Positions 9,272 through 56,036 are shown, counted from the first letter of the stretch. The stretch is 64,000 nucleotides of DNA from a bacterium (GCA_037127795.1 JBAXXQ010000001.1:6842-70841), one strand, 5' to 3'. Notes: generated by a model not told the origin, from the sequence alone. Program-made: numbers and translations.

Positions 9272-9272
9272 A

Positions 9273-10475: not shown

Positions 10476-10536
10476 ATATATATTGTATCATGTACGCCGT
10501 GCTTGCATAGAGCTATTTTGCCTGTACAATACCAAC

Positions 10537-12684: not shown

Positions 12685-14445
12685 CTAACTTCCAATTCTT
12701 TTAATATAAGTAATCTTATCTTTATAAGACTCTACTGTTCGGGTACCAAAACCACCAGCAACAGGATGCCCGCCTCCACCATGAGATTCTGCCAGTTGCC
12801 CATTTCCTATATATATAAGCACATGTCCAAAACCCTTACCTACAGCTTTCCAGCCAACAATATCACCAGGATTAAGTGTTTTACCATTTATTGCTGTATT
12901 TGTTATTCTTGAAGAATATGTTGTTTCTCCCCCATTAAAAATAGAATCTGTTCCTCCGTTAATAAAATCTGTTCCAGCTTTATATCCAGCACAATCCAAA
13001 ACAGTAGTAACAAAACCTGAACAATCTAAGTGGGAAGTTCCGTCAGATTGTACTGATGGATCCTTACCTTTACATATACTATTACCACTACCACAAGAAT
13101 TACTTAAATCAATATCATATGTTATTTTTCCTTGCCAACTCATAGCTATTTTATTTATATTGGAAGATTTACCTGATTTAAGACAAAACACACCGTTTGG
13201 TAGAGACCCAGAGGCTGTAAACTTTGTAGGTGCATTAGTATCACTATCCTGCTTAGTTATAAGTAATTGATCAATTCCTATAGTATTAGAAACCAGTGTT
13301 GGGTTTATAGTATTCAAAACAACGTACGCACTAAGTGCTATAAGAAGTCCTATACCCTTGTCCATCAAGGTACCCTTTACAGAAGCCTTAACTCCAGCAA
13401 CATCAGTAAGCATATACTTGAATCCATCAGACATTATACTTATCACCAAAATAACAACAGCAATACCAATAGCGTATTTAATAATAGTATTTAATAAATC
13501 ACTAAAACTACATATAGCATTAGCGTTTATTTTTTTTGCCAATGTACAAGACAAAGACCCAGGATCGGCAACAATAATAGTAGGGGTAAGGTCGTTTATA
13601 CTGGTACCTTTTACAGAAGAAAGAAGACCATACGCATTTTCCTCAAGATCCTTTGCTTGTGCTTTAATATTATTTCCAAAAACAGAGTTTGCCTGGGTTA
13701 TATTTTTAGGATCATCATATACCCATGGTCCATTATTTAATTTATATGCTTGTCGAAGGTAATATATAGAACCCGGGTTTGCAAATATACCAGGAAGAAT
13801 ACAAGAAAAACTTCCATCGCTATGTAAACAATTTGTTGCAGGAAATATAGGAACAGCCCCTTTATATGCTGCATCATACTGAGTTTTATCTGTTGTTGCT
13901 TGTATTGCAAATTCATATCCAGTTATTCCGTTTGGCAAATTAAGCCCTCCTGTCGCTAATGCGTTTCCATTCGCATCAGCAACGCCTATAGTAAGACTAC
14001 GAAACTCTACGGGTATCAAGGAATCATATTTAATATTTTGTAAAAAAGGTTTGCCTGCATTTTGCAAATCAATACTGGTTAAATCTGGAAACTTATAGAC
14101 ATATAAATAAACAAGAGGCGACGATCCGATCTTTGTATCCAAAACTACATCAAAATCTGTTTTAGGCAAAGGGTTTGATATTTTATATAAAGCATTATTT
14201 CCATAAGTAATATCACTTACACTAAATTGAGATAATAATTTAGTTGTAAATATAACTCTATATGCAGCATTAGGGTTTGTAGAAGTAGGAAGTGGTCCCT
14301 GTGAAAGATCAGGGCACCCTTTGACAGAAATAGTGGTTCTATCTGTTTGAGCAATAGGTACTGCCGTTAAAGAACAATTTGCAAATGCATTACTACCTAA
14401 AAAAAGTGTTGTAAGAAATATAAACGTGTAAAAATATTTTTTCAT
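12685..14445 (-). CDS. NlpC/P60-family peptidoglycan hydrolase with an N-terminal ectodomain and a TM hairpin. It is a candidate VirB1-like cell-wall hydrolase for the T4SS-like locus.
   Basis: The C-terminus has the catalytic Cys motif LDCSGFVTTVL and the His motif GHVLIYIGNG...H, both typical of NlpC/P60. Upstream of the domain lie a signal peptide and two hydrophobic helices (IGIAVVILVISIM, GIGLLIALSAYVVL). Confidence 0.7.
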   Translation of the reverse strand: MKKYFYTFIFLTTLFLGSNAFANCSLTAVPIAQTDRTTISVKGCPDLSQGPLPTSTNPNAAYRVIFTTKLLSQFSVSDITYGNNALYKISNPLPKTDFDVVLDTKIGSSPLVYLYVYKFPDLTSIDLQNAGKPFLQNIKYDSLIPVEFRSLTIGVADANGNALATGGLNLPNGITGYEFAIQATTDKTQYDAAYKGAVPIFPATNCLHSDGSFSCILPGIFANPGSIYYLRQAYKLNNGPWVYDDPKNITQANSVFGNNIKAQAKDLEENAYGLLSSVKGTSINDLTPTIIVADPGSLSCTLAKKINANAICSFSDLLNTIIKYAIGIAVVILVISIMSDGFKYMLTDVAGVKASVKGTLMDKGIGLLIALSAYVVLNTINPTLVSNTIGIDQLLITKQDSDTNAPTKFTASGSLPNGVFCLKSGKSSNINKIAMSWQGKITYDIDLSNSCGSGNSICKGKDPSVQSDGTSHLDCSGFVTTVLDCAGYKAGTDFINGGTDSIFNGGETTYSSRITNTAINGKTLNPGDIVGWKAVGKGFGHVLIYIGNGQLAESHGGGGHPVAGGFGTRTVESYKDKITYIKRIGS

Positions 14446-15196: not shown

Positions 15197-17011
15197 TTAT
15201 ATCTTTCTTTGCTCTCTAAATTCTGCTTTTGCTTTTTTGATTGCAAGTACTTGTGATGGATCTGAAGTAATAATCTGGTCTTCGGTATATGAAGAAATGA
15301 TTTTTATTGCCACATGTTTCAACCCTGCAAAGAATATCCCCTCCCCAACACCTGATTCAAGCAACAAATATCGCTCTTCATCAGTCAAATTAAAGGTTTT
15401 TTGCAATACATCCATAGAGCTTGGAGATTGTTTGAGCAAAAGCTGAATCGATGAGTTGGTCACAATCGGTACCCCGTATGGTGATTTCATAAAGTCTCCT
15501 ACGTCTTGGGTAATAGTACAAAGTCCAAGATAGTATTTTCTTCCTCGCTTTGCAATACTGTACAAGAATGATGCAGTATCATCACTTTTCATCATCCACC
15601 ATGCCTCATCCACAATAAGGAGTCTTTTTTTGATTTGGCGACGTACCGCATTCCAAATAAAGTGCGTTACGATATACATAGCGGCCGGCTTGAGATCATC
15701 TTCCATATCTCGTACAGAAAATACAATAAACTTTTTATTTATATCTACATTTGAAGGTTGGTTGATGAAGTTTGACCATGATCCTTTAGTATACTTGGTC
15801 AATCGAGTAAGAATAGACTCACTCCCCTCCATACCAGAAAGTACCATTTCAAAATCAGAAAGCAACGGTGGCTCAACACTCGCAAAATCTGAATTAGGGG
15901 TAATATCTTTCAATGCATATGTTTCTGTAATAGCACGGTCTACAATAGAATCCTCTTCTGGAGTAAGCCCTCCAAGCATAATACGAAACAACCCAACCAG
16001 GTTGATAATATTTGAACGCAATACGTCTTCTGGAGATTCATCTTCACGAGGGACAGGGAGGTCAAATGGATTGATATGATGATCTGAAGAAAGAGAGATA
16101 TTGAAATATCTTCCTCCTACTGCTTCTGCAAGATATTCATACTCTCGCTCTGGGTCAATAACAATAACCTCTGTTTCAAACATGAGCGTGCGAATAATTT
16201 CAAGCTTTGTTGCATATGATTTACCAGATCCAGATTTTGCAAAAATAATTGAGTTATAGTTTTCAAGAGAAAATCTATCAAAAATAACCAAACTAGAGTT
16301 GTGACGATTTACTCCATACAAAATCCCTTTATCATCAGTAAGATCAAAAGATACAAATGGAAAAATACTTGAAAGTGGTTCTGAGTTGAGCTTTTGGGTG
16401 ACATTGAGTGCGTCTTTTGCAAATGGCGATACAGTACGGAAACCGTCTTCTTGTTGAAAAAGTGCTGGTTTTATATAGATCATGCGAGATTCAAGGATAG
16501 ACTTGATCTCATTTTCAGATCTAAAAAGCTCTGTATCATTATCTGCATATACAGTAATGTATAAACCTACATCAAACATCTTTTCCTGTGCTTGGGTAAG
16601 GTTGTCGCGAAGTTCTTCGAGATCTTCTGCGGCAGTATCAAGTACTGGATCACGTACAAGACCTTTGTTCTGACGCTCCATAATCTGACTTTCTACTTCA
16701 GCAATTTTTTTCTGAAAGTGTTTCAAAAGTTCAGTGGTTGGAATCGGGTTTATATAAATAGCAACATCAAAAATTTTGTCGAGGTTGATAATAGGAGTAA
16801 ACCAATTATCAGAGAGATATCGAGGATATGAGAGGACAAAAAACGTACGTGCAATTTTATCCCCCAAGTGTATCCACTTTGGAGTAATCTCAAGTGCTTC
16901 AGGAGCAATAAGATCTTGCAGCTCAAGAGTTGCAGAAGAGTATAAATCGGTCGGCAAAATAGGTAATTGTTTACCTGTTGTTTGTTTTTGTTCACCACCA
17001 AAAATTCCCAT
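15197..17011 (-). CDS. VirB4/TraC/CagE-family conjugal-transfer-type ATPase, ATPase-domain half
   Basis: 604 aa with Walker A FAKSGSGKSYATK, Walker B RLLIVDEAWWMM and VirB4-family similarity throughout. Confidence 0.8.
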   Translation of the reverse strand: MGIFGGEQKQTTGKQLPILPTDLYSSATLELQDLIAPEALEITPKWIHLGDKIARTFFVLSYPRYLSDNWFTPIINLDKIFDVAIYINPIPTTELLKHFQKKIAEVESQIMERQNKGLVRDPVLDTAAEDLEELRDNLTQAQEKMFDVGLYITVYADNDTELFRSENEIKSILESRMIYIKPALFQQEDGFRTVSPFAKDALNVTQKLNSEPLSSIFPFVSFDLTDDKGILYGVNRHNSSLVIFDRFSLENYNSIIFAKSGSGKSYATKLEIIRTLMFETEVIVIDPEREYEYLAEAVGGRYFNISLSSDHHINPFDLPVPREDESPEDVLRSNIINLVGLFRIMLGGLTPEEDSIVDRAITETYALKDITPNSDFASVEPPLLSDFEMVLSGMEGSESILTRLTKYTKGSWSNFINQPSNVDINKKFIVFSVRDMEDDLKPAAMYIVTHFIWNAVRRQIKKRLLIVDEAWWMMKSDDTASFLYSIAKRGRKYYLGLCTITQDVGDFMKSPYGVPIVTNSSIQLLLKQSPSSMDVLQKTFNLTDEERYLLLESGVGEGIFFAGLKHVAIKIISSYTEDQIITSDPSQVLAIKKAKAEFREQRKI

Positions 17012-17047: not shown

Positions 17048-17692
17048 TTATTGTGTCGGCATTTTTACATTACTACTTCCTTCTCCTGGATTAAATGTTT
17101 TATACAAAAGTTCTATAAGTTCTTCTGTACCAAGACTTGCAGTACGGACTCCGAGTCTTCCTAAGCCTTGCTCTACAACAGAAACGCGTTGCTCGAGCTG
17201 TGTGCGTTGTTCTTCAAAATCTTTGAGCATTTGTGTTTGTGTATTATTACTACCAAACAATCCAGTAATTTTCCCCATGAAACCACTATTAGTACTGGCA
17301 AGTGGTGGAACATACGGTACCACTACATAAAATGATTTGCGCATAATATTCACATTTTCATTAAAAGAACGAATAAATTCAATATACTCACGTGTTTGTG
17401 TTTGCAAAAGTGGTTCTTCCTGTTCTTTGAGTCTTGCATCAAGTAATAACAGATATGGGCGTATGTCGTATCGACGAGATTGGATCAAAATTTGTATTGG
17501 AAAATCAAGTCCATTGAGGAACCCTTGAAATTGCATCAGTACAGACTTTTGCTCTTCATACGATTTGAGGCTGAGGTTGATAGAAGAAACAAGCACTGCT
17601 TTACAGAGCGAGTCGTCTTTGAGCACAATAACACCGTCTCGAACTTCTTTGACGGGTACAAACTCTTGAGTTGGTGATGATTTTACTGCCAT
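17048..17692 (-). CDS. VirB4 N-terminal domain encoded as a separate ORF
   Basis: 214 aa with FVPVKEVRDGVIVLKDDSLCKAVLVSSINLSLKSYEEQKSVLMQFQGFLNGLDFPIQILIQSRRYD, which resembles the N-terminal region of Gram-positive VirB4 (TraE/Orf16-type). It is in the same frame as 15197-17011 and separated from it by a single TAA plus 12 codons. Confidence 0.6.
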   Translation of the reverse strand: MAVKSSPTQEFVPVKEVRDGVIVLKDDSLCKAVLVSSINLSLKSYEEQKSVLMQFQGFLNGLDFPIQILIQSRRYDIRPYLLLLDARLKEQEEPLLQTQTREYIEFIRSFNENVNIMRKSFYVVVPYVPPLASTNSGFMGKITGLFGSNNTQTQMLKDFEEQRTQLEQRVSVVEQGLGRLGVRTASLGTEELIELLYKTFNPGEGSSNVKMPTQ

Positions 17693-17693: not shown

Positions 17694-18266
17694 TTATTTT
17701 CTCGTATCTATTATATCAAGACTTCGTGATAATGTTTTGAGTTTATCCTCTGTAAGTGATGGACGAAGTACTCGATCAGTCTTGGGTGCAAGCGCACGAT
17801 CAGTTCTCGTATCCACAGGAGCTTGCTGTTGTGCACCTTGCTGCGCAAATCGATTAACATTTTGTTTTTGGTGTAAATACATATTTTGATTTACCATTGC
17901 CATATCTCCCTGTACTGGCGTATTGTCGCGAGCTGTATCTATCCCCCACGATTCAGGAGTTTGTGCTATTGCGGCTTTCTTTTTTTGCCAAATATATAAT
18001 CGTGATCGAAAATAATATTTTACAAATGATTCTACAAAGTTTATAAATGGCTTGTCGTTATATTTATAAAACGCAAGCGCCGCACCAAACCCTCCAAACG
18101 CTAAACCAAATACTGCAGAAAAAGGAAATGGTAATAATTTAAAACAAAGATATAATCCTCCTGTCCCACCAGCAAGATACGCAAACTGTTTAAAAGTAAA
18201 CGGTCCAAAAATTTTATCTTCAATGTCAATAAATTGTGGGACTTTGAATTGCATATATACAATCAT
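17694..18266 (-). CDS. PrgI-family (VirB3-like) small membrane protein
   Basis: The N-terminus FKVPQFIDIEDKIFGPFTFKQFAYLAGG followed by two TM helices matches the PrgI/VirB3-analog pattern (KVP..I...EDKI.G.T.RQ..YL). It sits immediately upstream of VirB4, the canonical gene order. Confidence 0.55.
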   Translation of the reverse strand: MIVYMQFKVPQFIDIEDKIFGPFTFKQFAYLAGGTGGLYLCFKLLPFPFSAVFGLAFGGFGAALAFYKYNDKPFINFVESFVKYYFRSRLYIWQKKKAAIAQTPESWGIDTARDNTPVQGDMAMVNQNMYLHQKQNVNRFAQQGAQQQAPVDTRTDRALAPKTDRVLRPSLTEDKLKTLSRSLDIIDTRK

Positions 18267-18292: not shown

Positions 18293-18856
18293 CTACAAAG
18301 GCATTTCGCGGTATGGATCTGTTGATTTTGTTGGCGCACCAGGATTTTGCATTGGTTTATTTTGAGATCCAGGGATAAACTTTTGTGCAACAGAGGCAAT
18401 AGGAGCAACAACACTTGGTTTTTGCATTTTTGCCTGAATAGAAGCAAACAATTGCCCCATCTCTTGATTTTCAGGAGAAGATACTGTTTCAATATTATTA
18501 ACACCTATTTCATCTTTTTCTTCCTCCAGACTATTGGTAATCTCTGAAATAGTTGGATCTATTATGAATTCCTGTATATACCCAAGAAATATATCTTTAT
18601 TTTCTTCAGATAACCCCAGAGAATCAATAGTATTTTCAAATTCTTCTTTTGTAGAAAAATGAATAAGAAAATCAAATAATGCATTACGCGCAGTAGTAAC
18701 TTGTTCACTAGTAAATCCTATTTTCTTTTCGATAGTATCAAGTATATTTTTGTATGCATCGCTAAACAAAAACTCGCGAACCTCTACAGGAGTCATATCG
18801 AGTTTTTCCTCGTATAGATTCATATATTCTTCATTTGGATTATATTCGGTATCCAT
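18293..18856 (-). CDS. Acidic soluble hypothetical protein in the T4SS-like operon
   Basis: 187 aa with no TM segment and no recognisable motif. Confidence 0.4.
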   Translation of the reverse strand: MDTEYNPNEEYMNLYEEKLDMTPVEVREFLFSDAYKNILDTIEKKIGFTSEQVTTARNALFDFLIHFSTKEEFENTIDSLGLSEENKDIFLGYIQEFIIDPTISEITNSLEEEKDEIGVNNIETVSSPENQEMGQLFASIQAKMQKPSVVAPIASVAQKFIPGSQNKPMQNPGAPTKSTDPYREMPL

Positions 18857-18859: not shown

Positions 18860-21800
18860 TTATTTACCCCCCTCTTTAGCCTTATCTTGTATTTTTTTCT
18901 CAAGAGCTTCTCTTTTATCCCAAATATTTTTTAAATCATTATGCTTATCTTCTGCAGCCTTCTTTGCTATTGAAGCATTAGCAAAAGCTTCTTTATCTGA
19001 TTCTGCTGGACTATCTATATTCATAAACACTTTTTCTGCTTTTTTATGTTCAGCATTAGCAACTTGAACATCAGAATATGCTTTTGCAACGATTTTTTCA
19101 AAATCATCCTTTTTCTCCTTATCTTTGTCTTTATACTTTTCATTATACTCTTCATCAGGCACGTCCTCACCAACAAGGGTCTTTTTAACCTTTTCGTCTA
19201 ATTTTCGTAATTGCGCCTCAAGACTATTCTTACCTTTATTCTTACCATAATCTCTAGTATATGAATCAGCAGCTTTTTTCATAGCATCTGTTTCAGCAGG
19301 AGCAAGATATTTTGACCATGTTCGCTTTTCTCCATCTGGTTTAAAGTATAGAGAATTTTGCTTCATATCTTCTGCATAGTCATTCTTCATTGCAGCAGAA
19401 AAATCTTTAACACTGCCAATTTTTCCATATTTTTCAACATCATCTTTTTGTTTCTTTTCAAACAATGTCTTAACTTTATCTTTAAAGATTTTTTCTTCTT
19501 CATCACTGAGAGACTGCTTACCACCCTTGATTTTTAGTGTGTTAGCATCAATTCTACTTGCCTGTACTTTGTTTTGCTCTTTTATAGTAGACACCAATTC
19601 ACTCAACTTAGTGTTATGTGTTTCCAAAAGTTGCATTTTTTGTGCTTTTTCCTCTTTTGAATACAAACCAGCATTAAGCCCTGTTTTAATTTCTTTTATA
19701 GCAGCCTCAGCTTGCTTTTTCTGATCTGTAGCATTTTTCTTTGTGGCTTCAGCTGTTTTATATTGCTCATCTTGCTCTTTAGTAAATGCAGCAATAGCTT
19801 CTTTTTCAGCTTTTCTTCCTTGATGTTTTTCCCAAGCCATTTTTGCACCAACATCATCAAGATAATCAAATGTGCTAGATTTTTCAATCTTTTCTTTATT
19901 TTGTTTTTCTTTACGCTCTTTCATTCCTTTGAAGCCACCTTCAAAATCTTTTTTACCAAAACCAACCTTTTCAGCAAATTTATCATTATAATTCATACCA
20001 ACAGACCCCCCCACCTTACTAAGACCTGACATAATAGTGCTATTATTTCTAAAATCAAAACTAGCTGTCTGTGATTTATTAAGCGCATTATTTGCCTTTC
20101 TTGCAAAATAGTTATTATCAGCATTTGAGCTTGCCCATTGCCCTAGTCTTGACTTACCAATAGACCTTCCTGCTACACCACTCAATCTTGAACCCGCAGC
20201 TGCAATACCAGACGCCGCACCCATAGTACCCACAGTAAGCGCTGCTCCACCAACAAAACCTGCAGCCTTTGACATCATAGCCTGTGCTTGTTTTCCAAAA
20301 TCACCAGCAAAAGAAGTAATAATTACTTTCCCTTTATCCAAAAGACCCTTTACAATAAGCAATGGTATTGCTATCCAAAGGACTGTATATGTAAATGTAT
20401 GGTTTGTGCCATCAAGGTGTGATGTATAAAACGGTGTCTGCATTATCTTTATCACCAGATAAAAATATATAACAGTAACTGGAGCAAGGATAGCATAATT
20501 CATCAATTCACCAAGCCATTTTGTCCAATGCAAAGAATCAAGTTTTGATAAGAATGGTATCTCTCGAGACATAAATGCAACCGGAGAAAATATCATAGCA
20601 ACATATAACCCAATCACACGACCAATAAATATAAATCCTATACTCCAAAAAATAAGCCCTGTACCAAATGCAATAAAGGTACAAATAAGCACCACAAGAG
20701 TAAAGTAGCCCGCATATTCTTCTGGAGAATCCTTTTTAATTTGTGATAAATCTTTTGCTGTACCAAATGTAGCAGCACCACCATTTGTTTGAGCACTCAC
20801 CTGATCTTTTGTAGCTTGTGCTTTTGATGCCTCATCTGTGCCAGATAATGCATTATTAAATACTCGTTGCGGATCAAAGCTTTGTACAACAATAGCAGAG
20901 ACCCCTTTATATCCAGAATCACTATTACCATTATTTGCAGCACCACTAGACCCGACAGTACCTGCGTTATTACCCTGTACGCTAATTTGTGCGTAAAATA
21001 CTCGCGCAACAATATTTGAAATATCTATAACACCACGAGTAAGAAGCAAGCTAAAGTTTATTAAAATAGCATTAACAATAATTGCAGAAACAAGCTTCTT
21101 CAAATCTTTACCGCCAAAAATAGTAGATAATCCTGCATATATCAAAAGAATAATAAAGAATATATTTGCAATATCTCGCACTGTCGTCCATGCACTCGCT
21201 ACAAATGGTTGTAAATATGCAGTAGAACTAATTGAATACCCTAAAAAGAAGTCAAAAATATTCCCCATTAAATATGCAAAAAATGCAGCCCCTCTAAAAA
21301 GTACATAGTAGAAAAAGAGTGCAATACAACCCATGAATGTACCACTACTCATCCAGGTAAGACCACAAGAAGGCAATACATCATTACCACTAGCGGCAAC
21401 ACTAGCACCAGCAGCAGCTACTGCTTGTGTCATATCTGTAGCATTTTGATCAATGGCAGCCTGAGCGTTTGTAGTAGGAATAGTATATGGAATTGGTTTA
21501 CCAATTCTATAATAATACCCCTCAACAACCTTTGTGGTTTTTGTGTTTGACCATGAGGCACATTTTATTCCTGCTGTAGGACTTGCACTATTCCATAATT
21601 TTTTAACATCCTTTGGGTTATTTTTTGCATCAGTATCATCAGAAACAACAATACTATAAGTACCTTGTTTATATGTATACACCGAGGGGTCTTGCTCTGG
21701 ACAATACCAAAGACCCATATACACCTGCTGACCAGGAGCCAAGTGTCCTGTTTGAACAATTGTTTTTACTGTTTCTGATTGATTGGTCGCATTACTATCA

Positions 21801-22363
21801 TTTTTGGGTTTTCCATTTGAATCAGTTGAGTTATCGGTAAAATATTTATAAAAACTAGATGTTGGCATTTTTTGCGCAATAAGCGCATCATCAGCACTAC
21901 TTGTAGAATGTTCTTGAGGCAATATTATAGGTTGCCCAAAAATATTACCATTAGTATCTTCTAGTGTTGCAACAAAAGATGCTGTATCTTTACTTGGTCC
22001 ATAATAACTAAAATCTGCATTACCATCAGAAAATACATGTCTCCAACCATTTTTTATATCTGTCCATTTATTAGTAAAAATCAAATTTGCCTGTATAGTA
22101 AGCTCGCTTGCACCAATAGTAGTATCTTTTGAATCAAATTTATTTGGATCAGCTGGTGGTTTAAAATCAGTAGAAACCACACTCATACTTTTTATACCAG
22201 AATTCACATTATCAAAAAGATCAGAACCATATCCAGTTAGAGTAGGGCCACCAGCAGGCCAATTACCCGCAAATGCAGTACTAGCAGGTACTACAATACC
22301 TATAATAAAAATACTTAGGAGAACGGAAGTAATTATTTTTTTCCAAGCAAATGCTTTTTTCAC
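18860..22363 (-). CDS. Giant polytopic membrane protein, VirB6/TrbL-like, with an N-terminal secreted domain and a C-terminal K/E-rich coiled-coil tail
   Basis: 1167 aa with a signal peptide, a roughly 330-aa ectodomain, at least six hydrophobic helices between roughly residues 340 and 700, then about 450 aa of low-complexity KEKQNKEKIEK-type charged repeats. Confidence 0.5.
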   Translation of the reverse strand: MKKAFAWKKIITSVLLSIFIIGIVVPASTAFAGNWPAGGPTLTGYGSDLFDNVNSGIKSMSVVSTDFKPPADPNKFDSKDTTIGASELTIQANLIFTNKWTDIKNGWRHVFSDGNADFSYYGPSKDTASFVATLEDTNGNIFGQPIILPQEHSTSSADDALIAQKMPTSSFYKYFTDNSTDSNGKPKNDSNATNQSETVKTIVQTGHLAPGQQVYMGLWYCPEQDPSVYTYKQGTYSIVVSDDTDAKNNPKDVKKLWNSASPTAGIKCASWSNTKTTKVVEGYYYRIGKPIPYTIPTTNAQAAIDQNATDMTQAVAAAGASVAASGNDVLPSCGLTWMSSGTFMGCIALFFYYVLFRGAAFFAYLMGNIFDFFLGYSISSTAYLQPFVASAWTTVRDIANIFFIILLIYAGLSTIFGGKDLKKLVSAIIVNAILINFSLLLTRGVIDISNIVARVFYAQISVQGNNAGTVGSSGAANNGNSDSGYKGVSAIVVQSFDPQRVFNNALSGTDEASKAQATKDQVSAQTNGGAATFGTAKDLSQIKKDSPEEYAGYFTLVVLICTFIAFGTGLIFWSIGFIFIGRVIGLYVAMIFSPVAFMSREIPFLSKLDSLHWTKWLGELMNYAILAPVTVIYFYLVIKIMQTPFYTSHLDGTNHTFTYTVLWIAIPLLIVKGLLDKGKVIITSFAGDFGKQAQAMMSKAAGFVGGAALTVGTMGAASGIAAAGSRLSGVAGRSIGKSRLGQWASSNADNNYFARKANNALNKSQTASFDFRNNSTIMSGLSKVGGSVGMNYNDKFAEKVGFGKKDFEGGFKGMKERKEKQNKEKIEKSSTFDYLDDVGAKMAWEKHQGRKAEKEAIAAFTKEQDEQYKTAEATKKNATDQKKQAEAAIKEIKTGLNAGLYSKEEKAQKMQLLETHNTKLSELVSTIKEQNKVQASRIDANTLKIKGGKQSLSDEEEKIFKDKVKTLFEKKQKDDVEKYGKIGSVKDFSAAMKNDYAEDMKQNSLYFKPDGEKRTWSKYLAPAETDAMKKAADSYTRDYGKNKGKNSLEAQLRKLDEKVKKTLVGEDVPDEEYNEKYKDKDKEKKDDFEKIVAKAYSDVQVANAEHKKAEKVFMNIDSPAESDKEAFANASIAKKAAEDKHNDLKNIWDKREALEKKIQDKAKEGGK

Positions 22364-22402: not shown

Positions 22403-23185
22403 CTACCAGATGTGTAATTTAAGATTATCTTCGATACCATTATATTGAGCAAAACTTCCATCTATATTATATGTCGGAGCACCTTGTGTACCATTTGTAA
22501 GGAAACCACCAGTATTTGTAGCACCTCCAGAAGAATTTTTCTTATCGAGCTTTGAATCACTCCAAAATGGCGTAGGAAGGTGTACTGCATAATATCCAGT
22601 AAAACTAGACTCGACGCTTTCACAATAATTTCTAAGTTCTTTTATTTTTGCAAGCTCAAGCGCCATACCGTCATATATAGATTGTTCATCTGCTACATTA
22701 TCATCAGAATATAGTTGTTGATACAATGCACCAAAACGAGTATTTAATACCGCAAGTTGTGCTTGCTCAGCAGCAGTAAAAGGAATATTCAAATCAACAT
22801 CACTACAGGTAAGATTATTTGCATTTACTATATTATTATTTATTGTCCAAGAAGTATTATTATTGTCTGATATATCTCCAGAGTCACCCGATTGTGTATT
22901 CACTGTACTAGTAGAAGATGTAAAAATAGACACGAGTGGATTAAACCCATTAGAACTTGTAGTACTATTCTGTGTTGCGCTCGGATTTGTAAACAAAGAA
23001 GAGAGTAATGTATTACCAGAACCATCCTGTGCTGGCTTTTTATCTCCAAGACCAAGAAACTCTCTAAAACTCGCTTGATGTCCAAGGCTTTTTTGTAATT
23101 GCGCATTACGATACGCAACAAAAGCAAACCCTCCTATGACGATAATTATAACCAATATAGTGATGAATAATTTTTTGTTTTGCAT
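22403..23185 (-). CDS. N-terminally membrane-anchored hypothetical protein
   Basis: 260 aa with a single N-terminal TM segment (ITILVIIIVIGGFAFVAY) and a Ser/Thr/Asn-rich ectodomain. Confidence 0.45.
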   Translation of the reverse strand: MQNKKLFITILVIIIVIGGFAFVAYRNAQLQKSLGHQASFREFLGLGDKKPAQDGSGNTLLSSLFTNPSATQNSTTSSNGFNPLVSIFTSSTSTVNTQSGDSGDISDNNNTSWTINNNIVNANNLTCSDVDLNIPFTAAEQAQLAVLNTRFGALYQQLYSDDNVADEQSIYDGMALELAKIKELRNYCESVESSFTGYYAVHLPTPFWSDSKLDKKNSSGGATNTGGFLTNGTQGAPTYNIDGSFAQYNGIEDNLKLHIW

Positions 23186-23188: not shown

Positions 23189-26100
23189 CTAATCAGCACA
23201 GAGTGCTACGCTTGATGTTTGTAATGATCTATATTTTAAATTAGGATCCAATGTTTCTGCGATAGTACTTCCTCCTCCGTAATTTCTCAAAAGAGTACCT
23301 GCTTGTATTTGCGCATATGGTCCTGGGTCAGGGAATTGATATACAGAGCTGTCGTGTGGAGGGCTAAATGTAGTACCCAACAAAGATGATTTTGAAGGAT
23401 TAATATCTTTTGTATAGAACCCTTCGAAAGGAACACTTACTGTATTGATTGATATTCTTCGAGGTTTTCCTGTTGTTGTATCAATATCATTATTATCAGA
23501 AATAGTAATAACATATCGCACGTTTTTTGGAATATATTCTTCTATTGAGTGAGTACATACATTATCTGTTTCACCTATATGTGTCTTACTATTATTACCA
23601 CGACCAGAATCTTGAGAATATTCATCACATTTTCTATATGTTTCAAATAATGAAGTAAGACTAGTGTCAGTTATAGTTGGTATCGTAGTAACATCTTTAT
23701 CATACAACCCGATAATATTAGGATCTTTTCCTCCTGAATCTATATCAATAGTAGTATCAGGATAATTAAAATTCCACCCATCGGTCAAATAACTAAGCCA
23801 AGTCAAACCACCAGCACTCATTACCTGAGTTCCACAACTTCCACTTGGATCAACATTAGGATTACAACTAGGGTTACATGATGGATCATTATTTAAATAT
23901 GCAGTATCTTGTGTGCTTGGATCTGTCCCCCAAGAAAAACTTGTCATACATGCTCGTGGTGCACAATTTGGATCATAATTTGGATCTGATGGGCCAGCAC
24001 AAATAGTAGTACCAGAAACATTAGTAATATCTCCTCCACTAGTGAATGTATTTGAAGATGAAGCATCAGGAAGCCATGGCATATCTATATAGTTTGTAAT
24101 ACCCGATACGTGCAACATAGATAATGCAGCAGCACTACCAGGATTGACAATAGCATTCATTAAATAAATATTACTTTGGAAGATAGTATCAATAGTTTGT
24201 CCACTTATATATAATGCATCTCCGTATCTAGGTCTTGAAGCTTTAGCGGCAACATTTGAACCTTCTAGTTTTATTTGAGGATCTTTATATACCGCAAGAG
24301 GGAATCCTCCATAGGGTGCTAGTTCAGCAGCCTGATCTGCTCTATAATAATCAGCATATACCTGCCTATCTACATGTACATGATAATTCCCTGCAGCAAC
24401 AGTCTTTATTGGTGTTAATGTAATAGAGGTAGTTGGTTGCACACTTTTTGCCAAAAGATTTGGCCCCATAAGACAACTTACCGCATTAGATTTTGCGATA
24501 AAACCAATTTTTGATACAGGTTTTACTGTTGGCGGGGTACATGTTGCATTAGCTATACCACCGGCAGTATTACAAAGATTTTGATAAAAATCATATTGTG
24601 CAAATTGTGATTGGATTACCGTAGAATCACTGTTTGCATCAGACTCTTGAGCAGGGGCTCCAGCTGTTGAAAGATTGATAGCATAATTTTGATCAAGGCA
24701 ACTTTGATTTACGGTAATACCTTGTGCTGCCTGTGTTGCAATATGACGAGCACGTGCAACTTTTACAATAGCAAGTACTTGATTATAAATATCTTGCATT
24801 TGCGCTGCGGTAGATTCCGCCTTATCTATTTCAGTACCATAGGCGTCAGCATTTGCTTGGAGCTGATTGTTGTATTCAATCAAATTAAAAGATTCATTAT
24901 ACATATCACGAACTTGTCCACGAACAAATTCCGGAGAATTATTCTTATTTGGATCAGTAAGTACATATTGATCCATAAGTGTATCGAGACCATATCGAGT
25001 ATTTATTTCATTGGTATATGAAGAAAACCATTGCTCAAATGCATCCGCAACATCAGATCCAGGGGTAGGGCTTGCCTCTGTTTTTGTTACTGTATGAGAA
25101 CAGCTAGTGTTAAATTGCCCAGCAGATCCTAAAATACCGCCAACAGATGAACCTGTTGAACCTCCAATATACCCCCCTGCAAGCGAACCGACAGCACTTG
25201 TTAATGCTCCACTATTGAGCAAACTAGAACCAATATTACATGCAATATCCAAAAATCCCTCATTGTTTGGCTCTTGTACTTGGTATGTGTATGGAGGGTG
25301 AATAGGATATATATTAAAAACCTGATTTCTATAAGGAATTACACTATTTGTAACAGGGTCTTGAAAACCATATCTATCTGTAGCAAATGATTCATTTGTA
25401 TAATTAGGTGCTGGGCCAGGTCCTTGATATCCAGAACCAGAAGATAATGCTTTATTAAAATTATCATTACTATCTCCTGCATATACAGACCATGAAGGAT
25501 TTGGTCCAGGGAGACAATAATCAAGTGCTCCAAGATTTGCAACCATTTTTTTGTTTGCGTTAATAGAATCACTTGCTTTATTTATATAGTCATACTGTGT
25601 TTTAAGAATTGCGGCAAGTTGTGTCGTATGTGAAATATCAAAATTAGCTCCTACATCTGCACCGTTAGCATAACTAATTTCTGCAGTTGCTGTATCTACA
25701 CCATCAGTAGCTAAAGGTAAGCTATTACTAAACGGACTTGGAGACCATTTATTCGGTGTTGTAGGTGGATTGTACGGATAATCCTGACTTCCTTCTCCAT
25801 AATGAGCAAGTCCTTTATTGAGCCAATCATTAAGCTTTGCATCTACAATCCCCGCAATAACATCACTTATTTTATTTGCTGTCTCGAGTTGATGAATTTG
25901 TGTAGTAGTAATAGCGTTTGCCTGATTTGCAATAGCATCTCCAGGAGTAACTACACGAAATTGTGTGCATACTTTTTCTCCATTTTCATCTGTTTGATTA
26001 CTATATTTTGCACACACTTTTTGACTAAAATACCCATGTCCTTGATTGAGTTCATTTTGTGCATTATTTTTTTGATTACTATAATCACGATTAATATAGT

Positions 26101-27043
26101 CTATAGTACTGAGGTATTGCCCCATAGCATTTCCTTGGTTGTAAGTACTATTGAGCCATCCAGTCCACCCACCAGTCATTATATTATTAGCATCTTTATT
26201 ATACGTTTTACCAAACTGAGTATTTGAAAGATTACTCAAAAAATGAGGTGTCTTACCTGTTATCTCACTAGTAATAAGATTGTTTACTTGTTGATTAACA
26301 GCATTATTTAAAGTGGGATCATTACTACTTACTGTAAGGTTTGCAGGTTTTAAGTATTTATACAAAATACTATGATACATATTTTGAAAATATGATGACT
26401 GATCAGTAACATAAAATGGCGATCCTGCCATACCCGTATTTATATAACCCAATACAATACTAGACATTTTCGCTAATGATTTTCGAAGAGTATATTTTGC
26501 TAGAGCATCTGTACAAGTCTCACGCTTGTCTTGATTTGCAGCAGTGGTCTTGGCAATATCAACAGCAGCCTTACCGTTACTATTTATAGCATCTACTATA
26601 TTTGTTTCAGAAACAATCACAGGTTGTTGTATACTCGACCCTGTACTTTTTACCGAAGCATCTTTTTCATTTGATGCTTTTTTAAAAGCATCAGCTTGTA
26701 ATCTATTTTTACAAGAGGTACCACAAAAAAGTCCTCCATGTGCAACAGGAATAACAACACCCGCACCTGCTATATATTGATTAGTAACACCTCCAAAAAG
26801 CGCACTACTTGCCTTAGAGACTTCTTTATTTGCAAATGCAGTAACACTACCAACCCCTTGAGTAATCCAATCATCAGAAGATTTACCTCCAGCAACCTGA
26901 CAATTAAGCAAAGCCCCTGTCATACCAGTAACATTTATATTTGATCCTTGAAAAGACTGTGCATAAGTTTGAGAAATAGGTAAAAATAAAACACATCCTA
27001 GAAAAATGGTGAGTATTGTTTTTTTGCCAAAAAAATATTTCAT
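23189..27043 (-). CDS. Giant secreted surface protein, a candidate adhesin or substrate of the T4SS-like locus
   Basis: About 1283 aa from the internal start MKYFFGKKTILTIFLGCVLFLPISQTYAQS, which is a signal peptide. The protein is rich in N, T, S, G and Y with many Cys pairs. The start at 27043 abuts the upstream gene stop at 27045. Confidence 0.55.
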   Translation of the reverse strand: MKYFFGKKTILTIFLGCVLFLPISQTYAQSFQGSNINVTGMTGALLNCQVAGGKSSDDWITQGVGSVTAFANKEVSKASSALFGGVTNQYIAGAGVVIPVAHGGLFCGTSCKNRLQADAFKKASNEKDASVKSTGSSIQQPVIVSETNIVDAINSNGKAAVDIAKTTAANQDKRETCTDALAKYTLRKSLAKMSSIVLGYINTGMAGSPFYVTDQSSYFQNMYHSILYKYLKPANLTVSSNDPTLNNAVNQQVNNLITSEITGKTPHFLSNLSNTQFGKTYNKDANNIMTGGWTGWLNSTYNQGNAMGQYLSTIDYINRDYSNQKNNAQNELNQGHGYFSQKVCAKYSNQTDENGEKVCTQFRVVTPGDAIANQANAITTTQIHQLETANKISDVIAGIVDAKLNDWLNKGLAHYGEGSQDYPYNPPTTPNKWSPSPFSNSLPLATDGVDTATAEISYANGADVGANFDISHTTQLAAILKTQYDYINKASDSINANKKMVANLGALDYCLPGPNPSWSVYAGDSNDNFNKALSSGSGYQGPGPAPNYTNESFATDRYGFQDPVTNSVIPYRNQVFNIYPIHPPYTYQVQEPNNEGFLDIACNIGSSLLNSGALTSAVGSLAGGYIGGSTGSSVGGILGSAGQFNTSCSHTVTKTEASPTPGSDVADAFEQWFSSYTNEINTRYGLDTLMDQYVLTDPNKNNSPEFVRGQVRDMYNESFNLIEYNNQLQANADAYGTEIDKAESTAAQMQDIYNQVLAIVKVARARHIATQAAQGITVNQSCLDQNYAINLSTAGAPAQESDANSDSTVIQSQFAQYDFYQNLCNTAGGIANATCTPPTVKPVSKIGFIAKSNAVSCLMGPNLLAKSVQPTTSITLTPIKTVAAGNYHVHVDRQVYADYYRADQAAELAPYGGFPLAVYKDPQIKLEGSNVAAKASRPRYGDALYISGQTIDTIFQSNIYLMNAIVNPGSAAALSMLHVSGITNYIDMPWLPDASSSNTFTSGGDITNVSGTTICAGPSDPNYDPNCAPRACMTSFSWGTDPSTQDTAYLNNDPSCNPSCNPNVDPSGSCGTQVMSAGGLTWLSYLTDGWNFNYPDTTIDIDSGGKDPNIIGLYDKDVTTIPTITDTSLTSLFETYRKCDEYSQDSGRGNNSKTHIGETDNVCTHSIEEYIPKNVRYVITISDNNDIDTTTGKPRRISINTVSVPFEGFYTKDINPSKSSLLGTTFSPPHDSSVYQFPDPGPYAQIQAGTLLRNYGGGSTIAETLDPNLKYRSLQTSSVALCAD

Positions 27044-27044
27044 A

Positions 27045-27950
27045 CTATTGTTGTAGTGTATCATATTTTGCTATAGCTTGGTTAAGGTTATCCATAGCAG
27101 TATTCAAAAGAGTAGTAGCATTACTATATTCTCCTATAGCAGTTGCACCAAGCAGGTCATCATTTTTTATATTTGCAGCAGCAACAAGTGTATCTCCAAT
27201 AGTTTTTATACCGTTTACATAATCAAGATGCTCTCTCGCAATAGATATTGGAACCTTTATTTGTATAAGTTTTTGAGCAATTACTTGATACTCTTTGCCA
27301 TTTTGCGCAACACTATCGAGCTTACTATAATCATTATTTTGTACTGCATCAGACAAGATAGTCGTTTCGTCTTGGTCAAAATGTACTTTTGCTATAACTT
27401 TTTGAAAATTTATCGCATAACTATGTATATTATTTATAGTAGAAGGCAATAATATTACATCATTTATTGTATATAATTTCTTTTGTACAGGTTTAACAAT
27501 ATTTTGCACGAGCGGTGTAGTTACATCTTGTAATGTACCAGCATCAACATTACCGACTTGGTCCAAGATACTGGTCGTAGTGTAAATACCATATGCGAGT
27601 TTGTCTGTACCAGAGGCGGTAGAAAGATCGGTACCACCCGCAGCTTTATTTTCAGCCCTTTTTTGCATTACAATATCCCTATTTGATATACCATTCGTAA
27701 CAGCAACAGTAGGATCAAGCCCCCAGAGACGCTCTTCCCAATCTGGAATACCGTTATTATTACTATCTATTGCAATAATATCACCAAATGTTTGTTCTTT
27801 TTGGGTAGAAAGAACTTTAGGTCTATAGCTAAAGATTTTTTGTAAAATACCTGTTTGCACAACAATAATAACTAACAAAATACTACCTGCAACAATAGCA
27901 ACTCGCTTAAACTGTTTTGAAGGTTTTGGTATATTAGAAAACTGTTTCAT
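27045..27950 (-). CDS. N-terminally membrane-anchored hypothetical protein, first gene of the block
   Basis: 301 aa with the TM segment VAIVAGSILLVIIVVQTGIL and then a soluble domain. Confidence 0.5.
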   Translation of the reverse strand: MKQFSNIPKPSKQFKRVAIVAGSILLVIIVVQTGILQKIFSYRPKVLSTQKEQTFGDIIAIDSNNNGIPDWEERLWGLDPTVAVTNGISNRDIVMQKRAENKAAGGTDLSTASGTDKLAYGIYTTTSILDQVGNVDAGTLQDVTTPLVQNIVKPVQKKLYTINDVILLPSTINNIHSYAINFQKVIAKVHFDQDETTILSDAVQNNDYSKLDSVAQNGKEYQVIAQKLIQIKVPISIAREHLDYVNGIKTIGDTLVAAANIKNDDLLGATAIGEYSNATTLLNTAMDNLNQAIAKYDTLQQ

Positions 27951-53342: not shown

Positions 53343-56036
53343 CTATGATTGGTAACGTGCCATGATTTCTCCATCAACTTCTTCACGAGGTCTTCCAAAT
53401 TTGAGATATGAAAGCTCTTTTATTTTTTCTGCGAGATCTACACTACCACGAGGAGGGAAGGGGGTATGTGAGTTGAATGGTTTTGCAGGTACACCAGCGA
53501 CAAGCATCTTGATATAACAATTAAGGTTTTGTAGTTTCACAATATCTTCTGCAGACACTGTAGGGGAGAATTGTTTTGCAAATACTTCTGCATTCTCAGT
53601 GCTTACACGATGTATCACCATAGAGCCTACGTTACCGAATACTGCATTCTTTATACCTTCATCGAGTTGTTCTATGTATTGGTGTGCAACAGTGAGTGAG
53701 AGGCGATATTTACGCGCTTCAGACAAGATGGTGTTGATTGAGTCTGTAGTAATATTTTGGAACTCATCGATATACAAATAAAAATCATTCACCTGACTCT
53801 TGCCAACAATATCTACACGAGACAATGCAGCCATAGTAATTTTTCCTACAAGCAACAACCCAATAAGGTGTGAGTTGATATCTCCGAGACGTCCTTTTGA
53901 AAGATTTACCAAAAGAATTTTTTTGTTGTCCATGATATCGCGGAAATTAAACGCACTTTTTTGTTGTGCAATTACCGGACGCATAATATCGTTTGAAACG
54001 AATACATCGAACTTGTTTGTAATGTAGGGAACAAAGTTTGCAAGTGCACTTTCTCCTGTTGTTTTTTCTGCACCTTCCCAAAATTGTTTGATGATTGGAT
54101 TTTTACATTTAGATAATTTCATTTGGCGAAATTCTTTGCTTTGCAATACGCGCCCAATCTCAAGAAGGGTACACCCACTCTCTGGGTCTTCCATAACAAG
54201 CCCTGCAGCATTTCTAAAATACTGTTCAAACATAGGACCCCCGGCAACCTTCATATCAAAGAGTTTATTGAAAATAGCGAGCAATTCATTGATTACAAAT
54301 ATCTTTTGTTCAGGATATCGTACATCGTATTCGAGCATATTGAGCCCTATAGGACGGTCTGTATATGCAGGATCAAAATAGATAACATCATCAACACGTT
54401 CTGGGGGAATATTTGCCAAGATGTCTTGAATATCATTGCCGTGTGGATCGATGAAACACACCCCATCACCATTTTTGATATCTTGCAAAATCATGTTTTT
54501 CAAAAATACTGTCTTACCAGTACCAGTCTGTCCGACTACGTAGCAATGTCGCACACGATCTTCTTTTGCAAAAAATACATCACTTGTTTTTCCGCGATAG
54601 GTATTTTGACCCAATACGATACCTGATGATTGCATATTGTTTGGTACTGGTGCAGTAGTTGCATTTACTTCTTTGAGTTCGTTTTTTGCACTGAGTCCTA
54701 CAGGGAAGTGAAAGAGTGTTGCGAGCTCATCGATGTTGCAGAGAATAGTGTTTGCATCGTTCCATACACGATATGAGAAGTTGTGTGTGAACTCATGGAT
54801 GTTTGTTGTTTTGATATCGTTCCATGTCACACTGTTACCACCGACAAGCGCAAATTGATTGAATGATGACTTGATTGTTGCAAGAGTATTTTTTGCCTTA
54901 TCAAAACTATGTGATGTCGCAATAATACGAAACTGACATTCGATCATTTGTGATTTTATTTTTTTGCGAGCAAGTTCAATACCTGCAGTATCTATTTTTT
55001 TATCTTCTGTTTTTTCTTCGCCAGCTGGCGAATCAAAAAAAGACATCAAGCCTTTTACTACTCCTTTTGCAACAGATTCATGTGCGAGCTCATATTCTTT
55101 TTTAATAGTATTACCAGTTTTTTCTGCTTGATCGATAATGTGTGAAAACAAGTCGTATTCTGATTTGTCTATTTTTGTAGATACGAGAAATTGTATTGCT
55201 GCACCATCGCCTTTTGCTTGAAGACTTGAGAGAGATGAGACCAATGCTGCGAGCGGGTCATGAGAATATGCATCATCTGTCTGCATAGGGAATATATATG
55301 GTTGTGCCAAGTTGAGCACACTTCCGACAATGGCAGTACCCTCAGGTGAGAAAATATTGTAGTCATCACTTACTTCTTCGACAGTTGCATTGGGATAATA
55401 CGCAACAACGAGTTTTTGAAAAACATCTTCGACACCATTTGGTACTGATGCATAGAGCACTATATCTTTGCCTTCGTGCTCTACAGCGAGCTCAAGGGTA
55501 TAGTAGCGAGGTTTTTTTTCATCTATTGCCATCCCTACATAAAACTGTTTCATGGCTTGGATAAAGGTCTTGAACAACGTCGTACTATCACTGTCTGTAG
55601 TTGGGGGGAGTGTTACAGAAAATAGTGTATGCTCGAGGGTTTCAGCAAGACTACCAGGCTCAGAAAGCCCAGGAATTGCTTTGATAGTACGCAAATATTG
55701 CACCAAAAATCTGTGAAAATCATCATCGAGGTGTGGATCATTCATTTTTGACACAACATCAAGCGCGTTTTTAATGCCTTTTTCTAGAACAATCCCAAAA
55801 AGCATTTCAATACGAGCATCATGAGACTCCGGCGCAAGATTGAGCACAATACGCTCTGTTTCATGCTCTGGAAGTATGTGTGATTCATGGAGAAATTCTT
55901 TTGCTTCTGCGCGTGCATAATCCCGAAGCGCGTTTTCTGCAGATACCCCAGGAGCTTCTTTGTGCTCATTCTGGCGATGCATCATTGAATCTTGTAAATA
56001 ACTAATTTCTTTTGAAAGTGGTGATTGTTCTAACAT
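53343..56036 (-). CDS. Large P-loop ATPase of the TraD/VirD4/HerA (DUF87-like) type. It is a candidate type IV coupling protein or DNA translocase with an N-terminal domain of about 470 aa of unknown function.
   Basis: 897 aa with Walker A CYVVGQTGTGKTVFLKN, a Walker B-like LYIDEFQNI, and a C-terminal TVAHQY..VFGNVGSMVIHRV segment reminiscent of TraD/TrwB-family ATPases. Confidence 0.55.
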   Translation of the reverse strand: MLEQSPLSKEISYLQDSMMHRQNEHKEAPGVSAENALRDYARAEAKEFLHESHILPEHETERIVLNLAPESHDARIEMLFGIVLEKGIKNALDVVSKMNDPHLDDDFHRFLVQYLRTIKAIPGLSEPGSLAETLEHTLFSVTLPPTTDSDSTTLFKTFIQAMKQFYVGMAIDEKKPRYYTLELAVEHEGKDIVLYASVPNGVEDVFQKLVVAYYPNATVEEVSDDYNIFSPEGTAIVGSVLNLAQPYIFPMQTDDAYSHDPLAALVSSLSSLQAKGDGAAIQFLVSTKIDKSEYDLFSHIIDQAEKTGNTIKKEYELAHESVAKGVVKGLMSFFDSPAGEEKTEDKKIDTAGIELARKKIKSQMIECQFRIIATSHSFDKAKNTLATIKSSFNQFALVGGNSVTWNDIKTTNIHEFTHNFSYRVWNDANTILCNIDELATLFHFPVGLSAKNELKEVNATTAPVPNNMQSSGIVLGQNTYRGKTSDVFFAKEDRVRHCYVVGQTGTGKTVFLKNMILQDIKNGDGVCFIDPHGNDIQDILANIPPERVDDVIYFDPAYTDRPIGLNMLEYDVRYPEQKIFVINELLAIFNKLFDMKVAGGPMFEQYFRNAAGLVMEDPESGCTLLEIGRVLQSKEFRQMKLSKCKNPIIKQFWEGAEKTTGESALANFVPYITNKFDVFVSNDIMRPVIAQQKSAFNFRDIMDNKKILLVNLSKGRLGDINSHLIGLLLVGKITMAALSRVDIVGKSQVNDFYLYIDEFQNITTDSINTILSEARKYRLSLTVAHQYIEQLDEGIKNAVFGNVGSMVIHRVSTENAEVFAKQFSPTVSAEDIVKLQNLNCYIKMLVAGVPAKPFNSHTPFPPRGSVDLAEKIKELSYLKFGRPREEVDGEIMARYQS

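Follow-up and report, generated by a model that had tools for sequence, protein, structure and literature searches.

A candidate VirB6-type subunit of extended architecture in a chromosomal type IV secretion locus of a Patescibacterium-type genome

Type IV secretion systems (T4SSs) of Patescibacteria have been described as chromosomal machines of the monoderm type, often encoded near ksgA, rnpA, rpmH and dnaA, that comprise TrsD, PrgI and VirB4, usually lack a relaxase and often have a distantly encoded coupling protein (PMC12102498). TrsD is the commonest T4SS component in these organisms, and the coupling protein is, according to the same survey, not essential in Southlakia (PMC12102498); the T4SS itself is essential for epibiotic growth of Southlakia epibionticum, the one genetically tractable Patescibacterium that has been studied (Wang et al. 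2023, PMC10633639). VirB6 was counted far less often than its partners, with 480 proteins against 2,474 for VirB4 and 2,272 for TrsD, and with VirB4 present in 2,417 of 3,035 genomes (Quinonero-Coronel et al. 2025, PMC12102498). The survey, which does not describe the domain architecture of VirB6, ascribes its absence from some classes to extreme divergence (PMC12102498). Here we analyse a stretch of 64,000 nucleotides of bacterial DNA (GCA_037127795.1, JBAXXQ010000001.1:6842-70841; hereafter the window, to which all coordinates refer) and, within it, a gene on the minus strand at 18860..22363. Its product of 1167 amino acids is, on balance, probably a VirB6-type subunit, with an extended architecture, of a chromosomal monoderm-type (MPF_FATA-like) T4SS in a Patescibacterium of the Paceibacteria/Nomurabacteria type.

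In canonical VirB6 proteins the N-terminus and a large loop are periplasmic and the C-terminus is cytoplasmic (PMC7648143). Extended VirB6 proteins, whose C-proximal hydrophilic domains are large, form a recognised class (PMC12857230, PMC7648143); in the Rickettsiales paralogues and in TraG of the F plasmid and of SXT, at least five hydrophobic helices are combined with large hydrophilic N- and/or C-terminal domains, and a signal peptide is predicted for some of these proteins. What the extensions do is debated. They are unrelated in sequence, and several are rich in repeats and have been shown or proposed to be extracytoplasmic. The protein described here shares the helices, the large hydrophilic domains and the signal peptide, with an ectodomain of about 310 amino acids and a C-terminal region of about 480 attached to its VirB6 core, but its tail is free of repeats, 43% charged and most likely cytoplasmic. 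To R388 TrwI/VirB6 (PDB 7O3V, 8RT9, 8RTD) it is similar in the fold of the helical core, in being encoded together with VirB3 and VirB4, and in that the best topology model presented below matches the canonical arrangement of N-terminus out, large loop out and C-terminus in. By analogy it presumably also serves as the central channel or platform. The solved chains of TrwI are, however, only about 260-270 residues long, whereas the protein here has in addition the signal peptide and ectodomain in front of the core, and a linker and charged helical domain behind it; moreover its host is a monoderm, and partners corresponding to VirB5, VirB7, VirB9 and VirB10 are absent. The Firmicutes MPF_FATA systems, exemplified by PrgH of pCF10 and a TrbL_2-like protein of a Clostridium perfringens plasmid (locus L001), have a VirB4 of the same class (CD1110), and the C. 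perfringens locus shows the same order of membrane protein, PrgI, VirB4 and hydrolase, although its membrane protein, at 264 amino acids, lacks both ectodomain and tail. With the Patescibacterial T4SSs the locus has in common the arrangement VirB6-x-VirB3-TrsD-VirB4, the proximity of ksgA, yidC and origin-proximal genes, and the distant coupling gene.

The open reading frame (ORF) proposed in a preliminary description of the window is real. It begins with GTG and runs for 1167 codons, and this start is credible because alignments with homologues begin at residue 1. Residue numbers below are those of the full product, and structural statements refer to a full-length AlphaFold2 model built with 94 sequences (predicted local distance difference test, pLDDT, 76.7) and to a model of the core alone (pLDDT 69.5). 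The protein opens with a signal peptide (residues 1-32; 22268..22363, minus strand, as for every segment of the protein) composed of the K-rich stretch MKKAFAWKK, a hydrophobic core at 10-30 with a hydropathy peak of 2.46, and a conserved AxA cleavage site after residue 32, between AFA and G; A32 is nearly invariant and AxAQ is the family consensus. It is followed by a hydrophilic, variable N-terminal ectodomain (residues 33-342; 21338..22267) with disulfide-type cysteine pairs, which is beta-rich in the model (strands 56-64, 85-94, 197-220 and 284-294) and ranges from 41 to 406 amino acids among 24 aligned close homologues. The VirB6/TrbL-like hydrophobic core (residues 343-700; 20264..21337) is the best conserved part, with a mean top-residue frequency of 0.59, and AlphaFold2 places in it six long helices at 343-378, 386-415, 421-458, 547-591, 613-642 and 657-684. 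Signal peptide, ectodomain (given as about 330 residues) and a cluster of at least six hydrophobic helices had all been described beforehand and are borne out, hydropathy and AlphaFold2 together giving six to seven hydrophobic helices. The polar residues R396, D397, N400, N436, S438, D447, N450 and R582 of the core are invariant, as are W392 and W616. By hydropathy the cluster spans 343-684 and is broken by a variable hydrophilic loop (residues 459-546; 20726..20989), which has a pLDDT below 50 apart from a conserved helix, GYKxLSxxIVxxFNPQ, and is probably extracytoplasmic like the P2 loop of VirB6. Behind the core lie a linker of about 100 amino acids rich in Gly, Ala, Ser and Asn (residues 701-800; 19964..20263) and the K/E-rich, all-alpha C-terminal domain, or tail (residues 801-1167, about 367 amino acids; 18863..19963). 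The linker begins with a weakly hydrophobic G/A segment at 701-725 (a Gly/Ala-rich stretch of about 701-740 in the hydropathy plot), holds the conserved motif QtgSfDvRnt at 765-774, of which SfDvR (768-772) is at least 60% conserved, and has a pLDDT below 50 at 703-728 and 768-794.

It is very likely that this protein is a VirB6 homologue and a T4SS subunit, a VirB6-like nature having been suggested beforehand. Three independent lines bear on this point, namely fold, profile homology and synteny. When the model of the core was compared with the PDB by Foldseek, ranks 1-7 were all chains of R388 TrwI/VirB6 and every lower rank had a probability below 0.2; the best match, 8rt9_F, had E 5.6e-3, a probability of 1.00 and a template modelling (TM) score of 0.53 normalised to the target. 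A search with the full-length model again returned TrwI/VirB6 as its top seven. Sequence identity to TrwI/VirB6 is about 13-15%. The connection at the level of profiles runs through a weak relative, P0050, which matches the query with E 1e-5 and aligns with positions 2-212 of the 215 in the Pfam TrbL profile. P0050 belongs to a sister family, also from Patescibacteria, two members of which (P0181 and P0257) score 26.1 and 27.8 bits against the TrbL gathering threshold of 25.9. Many members of the sister family carry a precomputed match to PF19590, which we take to be the TrbL_3 family. Aligned by hhalign, the core and the sister family match over 366 columns with a probability of 99.9% and E 1.3e-34, and have the motifs GWxxxRDIAN, (V/I)NFSL and SPxxW/F in common.

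Gene order provides the third line. In the window the VirB6-like gene is followed by a gene x, PrgI/VirB3, TrsD, VirB4 and a hydrolase. At the loci of one close and one distant homologue the target gene is followed by a gene for 173-194 amino acids, a PrgI-like gene, a TraC-like gene, VirB4, others and lastly YidC; the close homologue's locus includes an NlpC/P60 gene, and that of the distant homologue adjoins rnpA, rpmH and dnaA. Adjacency of PrgI, TrsD-like and VirB4 genes is conserved in loci L002-L005 and L086. A published table for one Patescibacterial genome lists gene 531 as VirB6, 533 as VirB3, 534 as TrsD and 535 as VirB4 (supplementary table, PMC12102498), and the position and spacing of our gene match those of gene 531. 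The locus as a whole has the marks of the MPF_FATA-like loci of the Patescibacteria clade: a monoderm-class VirB4, TrsD, PrgI, a housekeeping context and, among the scanned ORFs of at least 150 amino acids in the window, no relaxase domain.

Several results weigh against the assignment. Pfam and NCBIfam hold no family that matches the protein, or its ectodomain, core or tail taken separately, even at E<=10; direct HMM (hidden Markov model) searches against TrbL/VirB6 were negative, no match at threshold being found to Pfam PF04610 and PF19478 (TrbL, TrbL_2) or to the VirB6 models of NCBIfam, and among 54 diverse family members just one touches Pfam TrbL, with E 0.0046. Searches of PDB sequences with full-length and core profiles gave no match for the core and only coiled-coil noise for the tail, and the structural matches to TrwI have modest E values (about 6e-3) and root-mean-square deviations (rmsd) of 7-10 Å. 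It is because of the negative HMM search that the VirB6 assignment needed more sensitive methods. An hhalign comparison of the core with the single TrbL_2-like protein of C. perfringens was uninformative (probability 1.3%); a profile of a whole family was needed instead. Taking these points together with the fold, the profile link to TrbL and the synteny, we regard the protein as a divergent homologue of VirB6/TrbL that escapes present curated models.

The family to which it belongs is large. An initial database search found 52 relatives of about 700-1285 amino acids, none with a Pfam domain, the few named ones coming from Paceibacterota or Nomurabacteria. When 1.84 billion representatives were searched with a core profile (alignment A2, query residues 325-795), 20,282 clusters matched at E<=1e-3 and, more stringently, 4,332 at E<=1e-30. 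Searches of GTDB species genomes confirmed 237 relatives, of which the best is 59% identical. The 80 of these that are listed all come from uncultured metagenome-assembled genomes (MAGs), mostly labelled Patescibacteria, several labelled only 'uncultured bacterium' and one short contig labelled Simkania. A public MAG contig that bears the locus (L086; GCA_964516085.1, contig CAZEYQ010000002.1, 8,123 bp) starts inside the VirB6-like gene; the encoded product is identical to the tail of our protein, and the gene has been annotated as a 390-amino-acid protein from an internal Met, which shows how fragmented assemblies hide the family. Extended VirB6 proteins as a class, and the secretion system itself, are already known. 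What is new is modest but concrete: a very large family confined to Patescibacteria-type MAGs, missed by the curated models of Pfam and NCBIfam, that fills the VirB6 slot, and a fixed architecture of signal peptide, variable ectodomain, VirB6 core, linker and charged helical domain.

The C-terminal domain had been described beforehand as a low-complexity, repetitive coiled coil of about 450 residues of unusual length and charge. High charge is confirmed: the tail consists of 20.7% K, 11.6% E, 10.8% A and 8.6% D, is 43% charged and carries a net charge of +9. Its length is, however, nearer 367 residues, the sequence behind the last hydrophobic helix amounting to about 480 only if the linker is included. 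Low complexity applies only mildly (3.47 bits of entropy, against 3.6-3.7 elsewhere in the protein), and conserved motifs and a pLDDT of 83-96 argue otherwise; self-BLAST finds no internal repeat. Neither do the data favour a coiled coil. AlphaFold2 predicts 11 helices of 8-44 amino acids with turns between them, and the heptad contrast of the tail is marginally above that of shuffled sequences (mean 0.27 versus 0.21), with only scattered windows beyond the 95th percentile; hydrophobic residues make up 12-30% and charged residues 34-65% of the helices, which show no significant hydrophobic moment. By these home-made measures, which also included salt-bridge counts, both a coiled coil and a single alpha-helix of the ER/K type are unsupported. 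A tail of this kind is likewise less unusual than had been thought. It is present in all 24 aligned close homologues, at 190-422 amino acids, with about 15-23% K+R and 13-22% D+E in nearly all of them (P0031 has a markedly lower charge), and in all 38 members of the sister family, at 223-458 amino acids, with 15-21% K+R and 11-17% D+E; extended VirB6 proteins are in any case established. The charged tail is thus a normal, conserved trait of this protein family. Conservation of its sequence is low overall (mean top-residue frequency 0.28 in the 94-sequence alignment), but three motifs in that alignment are at least 60% conserved: GLGxxxxkGG..KR at 801-818, hLsDxxakxxWek at 833-846 and kYG...AmRxeYAexL at 978-1001, the last in its fuller form kYGxvkxxkxLtxAmRxeYAexL. 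Homology between the tails of the two sister families is not detectable (hhalign E 0.11).

On which side of the membrane the tail lies was left open by the preliminary description, which allowed for a cytoplasmic scaffold or an outward protrusion. We judged topology from loop charges, composition, cysteine parity and the literature. Across the family about three K/R residues are found in each of the N-terminus and the loops 367-396, 600-619 and 678-700, compared with 0.9 in the loop 644-656 and 1.7 in the four-residue loop 420-423. Cytoplasmic proteins of this genome have 11-25% K+E and 19-32% STNGQ, whereas proteins bearing a signal peptide or anchor have 5-13% and 37-47%, respectively. By this yardstick the ectodomain (9% K+E, 39% STNGQ), the central loop (8% and 51%) and the linker (9% and 44%) are of the secreted type, and the tail, with 32% K+E and 23% STNGQ, is not. 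The cysteine count of the ectodomain is even in 93 of 94 homologues; the central loop has two or four cysteines (CxGxC) in 69 of the 94, none in 25 and an odd number in none, and the linker and tail have a single cysteine across all 94. The query itself has none in the central loop, the CxGxC with which that loop opens elsewhere (alignment A4, region of query residues 462-468), and which could be a disulfide or a metal site, having been lost from it and from its closest relatives P0001 and P0002.

Canonical VirB6 topology is the best-fitting model and satisfies all four indicators. According to this model, the ectodomain and helix 343-378 would sit on the outer face; helices 386-415 and 421-458 would form a hairpin with its K-rich turn inside and the central loop outside; and helix 547-591 would make one long inward pass, 613-642 an outward and 657-684 an inward one, leaving the tail inside. 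Cysteines, charges and composition all fit if helix 343-378 stops short of a full pass and 547-591 crosses the membrane just once. A simple model with seven transmembrane segments, in which 552-599 forms a hairpin and the central loop lies inside, ranks below the canonical model with five passes because the central loop has a secreted-type composition and paired cysteines. Both models put the tail in the cytoplasm, and a cytoplasmic tail, favoured by its composition, the flanking positive charges and the canonical topology of VirB6, is the likely arrangement.

A number of observations nevertheless point the other way, and most of them are also the case for the foremost alternative, that the protein is a VirB6 homologue whose tail lies outside the cell. 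The segment 701-725 is weakly hydrophobic and resembles a glycine zipper, so that it could be an extra membrane pass, and the composition of the linker (726-800) behind it is extracellular-like. In the assembled R388 machine TrwI spans the membrane with just two helices, alpha1 and alpha2, while its remaining hydrophobic helices build a periplasmic dome (PMC9259494), and therefore counts of hydrophobic helices may mislead as to the side of the C-terminus; the helices here might in the same way build an extracytoplasmic dome. In our model three helices lie between two extracytoplasmic-looking regions, and therefore at least one of them is not a simple membrane pass. The scarcity of cysteines in linker and tail has been counted on the same side, as has the finding that TolC-family alpha-hairpin channels are the only matches of the full model by Foldseek other than VirB6 (OprN, E 0.058, probability 0.75). 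Against this stands the composition of the tail, whose K+E content is far from the 5-13% of all secreted proteins of the genome. The segment 701-725 has a family hydropathy of 1.03, which is below the transmembrane range, is flanked by about three positive charges on each side and has a pLDDT below 50, and the export of 450 residues, 43% charged, past the last membrane helix would be costly. A TolC-like alpha-barrel for the tail has itself to be rejected, as the matches to OprN, VceC and OprM (E 0.06-0.8) superimpose with an rmsd of about 28-30 Å and a TM-score of about 0.13, and are those of generic long helical hairpins. We therefore regard an external tail as unlikely. Two variants of it can be envisaged: five tails might assemble into a helical stalk or conduit that traverses the wall in place of the absent VirB5 stalk, or the tail might be a surface-exposed or released domain for host contact, as proposed for the Rickettsiales VirB6 paralogues and F-plasmid TraG. 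That an exported pentamer of tails replaces the VirB5/VirB2 stalk absent from monoderm systems, or is delivered onto the host, is more doubtful again; if it were so, the tail would be a physical bridge between an epibiont and its host bacterium.

Much less credit can be given to the view that the membrane core alone matters and that the tail is a compositionally biased, neutral spacer or a disordered appendage drifting freely. Its low mean conservation and the undetectable homology between the tails of the sister families would agree with this, as would the failure of a database search with the tail alone to retrieve relatives; the sole match was the same gene cut at the start of the 8.1-kb contig in GCA_964516085.1, which gave no fusion clue and speaks to that extent against a defined role for the tail as well. 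It is hard, however, to reconcile a neutral spacer with a charged tail of similar length in 62 of 62 homologues, in organisms with strongly reduced genomes, with several motifs that are at least 60% conserved, or with 11 of 11 helices predicted at a pLDDT of 83-96. Finally, that the gene encodes an unrelated polytopic protein, such as a permease or adhesin anchor, which merely adjoins T4SS genes, has been largely refuted and is scarcely credible: the missing direct Pfam/NCBIfam match and the name 'ABC-type amino acid transport system permease subunit', given to a sister-family protein by one database source, are set against seven top structural matches that are all VirB6, the hhalign link to a family with members at the TrbL threshold, and a position relative to VirB3, TrsD and VirB4 that is invariant across distant genomes and equals the published position of VirB6.

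For a VirB6-type subunit with a cytoplasmic tail, the following mode of action may be proposed, guided by the R388 structures. In the middle of the VirB3/VirB4 membrane complex the core would oligomerise, R388 having a pentamer there (PMC9259494, PMC12624023), and might serve, like TrwI/VirB6, as a funnel or platform that passes substrate or a VirB2-like pilin; R396/D397, N400, N436/S438, D447/N450 and R582 are candidates for lining the path. The hypervariable ectodomain with its disulfide-type cysteines would face the wall or the host, while the linker and the charged helical domain of 367 residues would hang in the cytoplasm under the channel, beside VirB4, TrsD and the coupling protein. There the tail may conceivably dock or space the ATPases (VirB4, TrsD and the distant VirD4-like coupling protein) or substrates, all of these being candidate partners, and we advance this role only tentatively. 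It would be the most economical one because the minimal monoderm system is without cytoplasmic connectors of the VirB10 and VirB8 types, and the tail would then take over part of the job that the cytoplasmic tails of VirB8/VirB10 do in diderm systems.

The other genes of the cluster lie on the same strand. Between the VirB6-like gene and PrgI is the gene for a hydrophilic protein of 187 amino acids (18293..18856, minus strand) of cytoplasmic-type composition, which belongs to no Pfam or NCBIfam family; the slot is occupied by a gene for 173-194 amino acids in homologous loci, and the protein is a candidate partner of the tail. It is followed by the PrgI/VirB3-like membrane protein (17694..18266, minus strand; Pfam PF12666, E 1e-8, 36 bits against a cut-off of 27), a TrsD-like protein of 214 amino acids that is a stand-alone homologue of the N-terminal domain of VirB4 (17048..17692, minus strand; N-terminal part of NCBIfam VirB4_plasma, E 1.8e-10; TrsD/TraD, E 3.4e-4), and a VirB4 ATPase of 604 amino acids of the CD1110/MPF_FATA type (15197..17011, minus strand; NCBIfam NF045971, E 7.5e-114, 381.6 bits against a cut-off of 325; Pfam P-loop_TraG, E 8e-26). 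VirB4 thus appears 'split' into a 214-amino-acid VirB4-N/TrsD gene and a 604-amino-acid ATPase gene; the same two-gene pair is found in homologous loci, where a 'TraC-like' gene of 213-214 amino acids takes the TrsD-like position, so that the split reflects the known TrsD+VirB4 organisation, not a frameshift. A protein of 265 amino acids is encoded between VirB4 and an NlpC/P60 cell-wall hydrolase (12685..14445, minus strand; Pfam NLPC_P60, E 1e-7), which has the same slot in homologous loci and is a candidate VirB1 analogue, and a protein of 470 amino acids after the hydrolase.

Upstream of the VirB6-like gene, and co-oriented with it, are genes for a bitopic protein of 260 amino acids (22403..23185, minus strand) and for a secreted protein of 1291 amino acids rich in Cys, Ser, Thr and Asn (23189..27064, minus strand), neither of which matches Pfam or NCBIfam; both have an N-terminal hydrophobic segment and a secreted-type composition. 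Large genes (773-967 amino acids) also lie upstream in homologous loci, and the two proteins might supply the T4SS with wall-spanning or adhesin components and a VirB8-like one. Beyond them lie ksgA and uvrD, and the chromosomal setting is further evident from pgk, tpi, recJ, yidC, type IV pilus genes, nusA, trigger factor, clpP and five tRNA genes in the window. A VirD4-like type IV coupling protein of 897 amino acids is encoded about 31 kb from the cluster (53343..56036, minus strand; TrwB_AAD_bind, E 4.8e-7; T4SS-DNA_transf, E 2.8e-6; TraG-D_C, E 2e-5; all above their cut-offs), placed between the tRNA cluster and clpP. None of the scanned ORFs of at least 150 amino acids in the window has a relaxase domain.

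Other features of the window may be recorded briefly. A type IV pilus block (6528-10475, minus strand, and 10393-11250, plus strand) adjoins the T4SS and encodes PilC/T2SSF, two proteins with N-terminal methylation motifs and a Ser/Thr/Asn-rich protein of 427 amino acids. The PilC ORF as called, from GTG, overlaps the 5' end of yidC on the opposite strand by about 80 nucleotides, and therefore the true start of PilC is probably further downstream. Four paralogous TrmB-family regulators of about 250-265 amino acids are encoded within 14 kb (34408-35160 and 35812-36597, plus strand; 45861-46658 and 47295-48089, minus strand), and the segment at 34-36 kb has the lowest G+C of the window, 0.307. 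Also present are a tyrosine recombinase gene of the XerC/D type (41287-42207, plus strand) and a ComM/Mg-chelatase-like ATPase gene (36594-38114, minus strand); in the related locus L002, too, a ComM-like gene adjoins the T4SS block. The five-tRNA cluster (50256-52190) comprises tRNA-Gly with anticodons GCC, TCC and CCC, tRNA-Arg(TCG) and tRNA-Pro(TGG), interspersed with a gene for a HAD-family hydrolase.

As both this kind of protein and the secretion system are already known, the finding refines existing knowledge and does not overturn it. Its interest lies in the combination of a VirB6-like protein, the published VirB6 position and a very large unannotated family, so that searching with a core profile could fill much of the VirB6 gap in the survey of Patescibacterial T4SSs. 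Roughly 80% of Patescibacterial T4SS loci have yielded no VirB6, and the family may supply this 'missing' subunit, a proposal that is better supported than export of the tail. The charged tail and the hypervariable ectodomain are most likely the parts of the protein that are most lineage-specific, and they offer targets for finding out how, in a minimal monoderm machine, the ATPases are coupled to the channel and the host is contacted.

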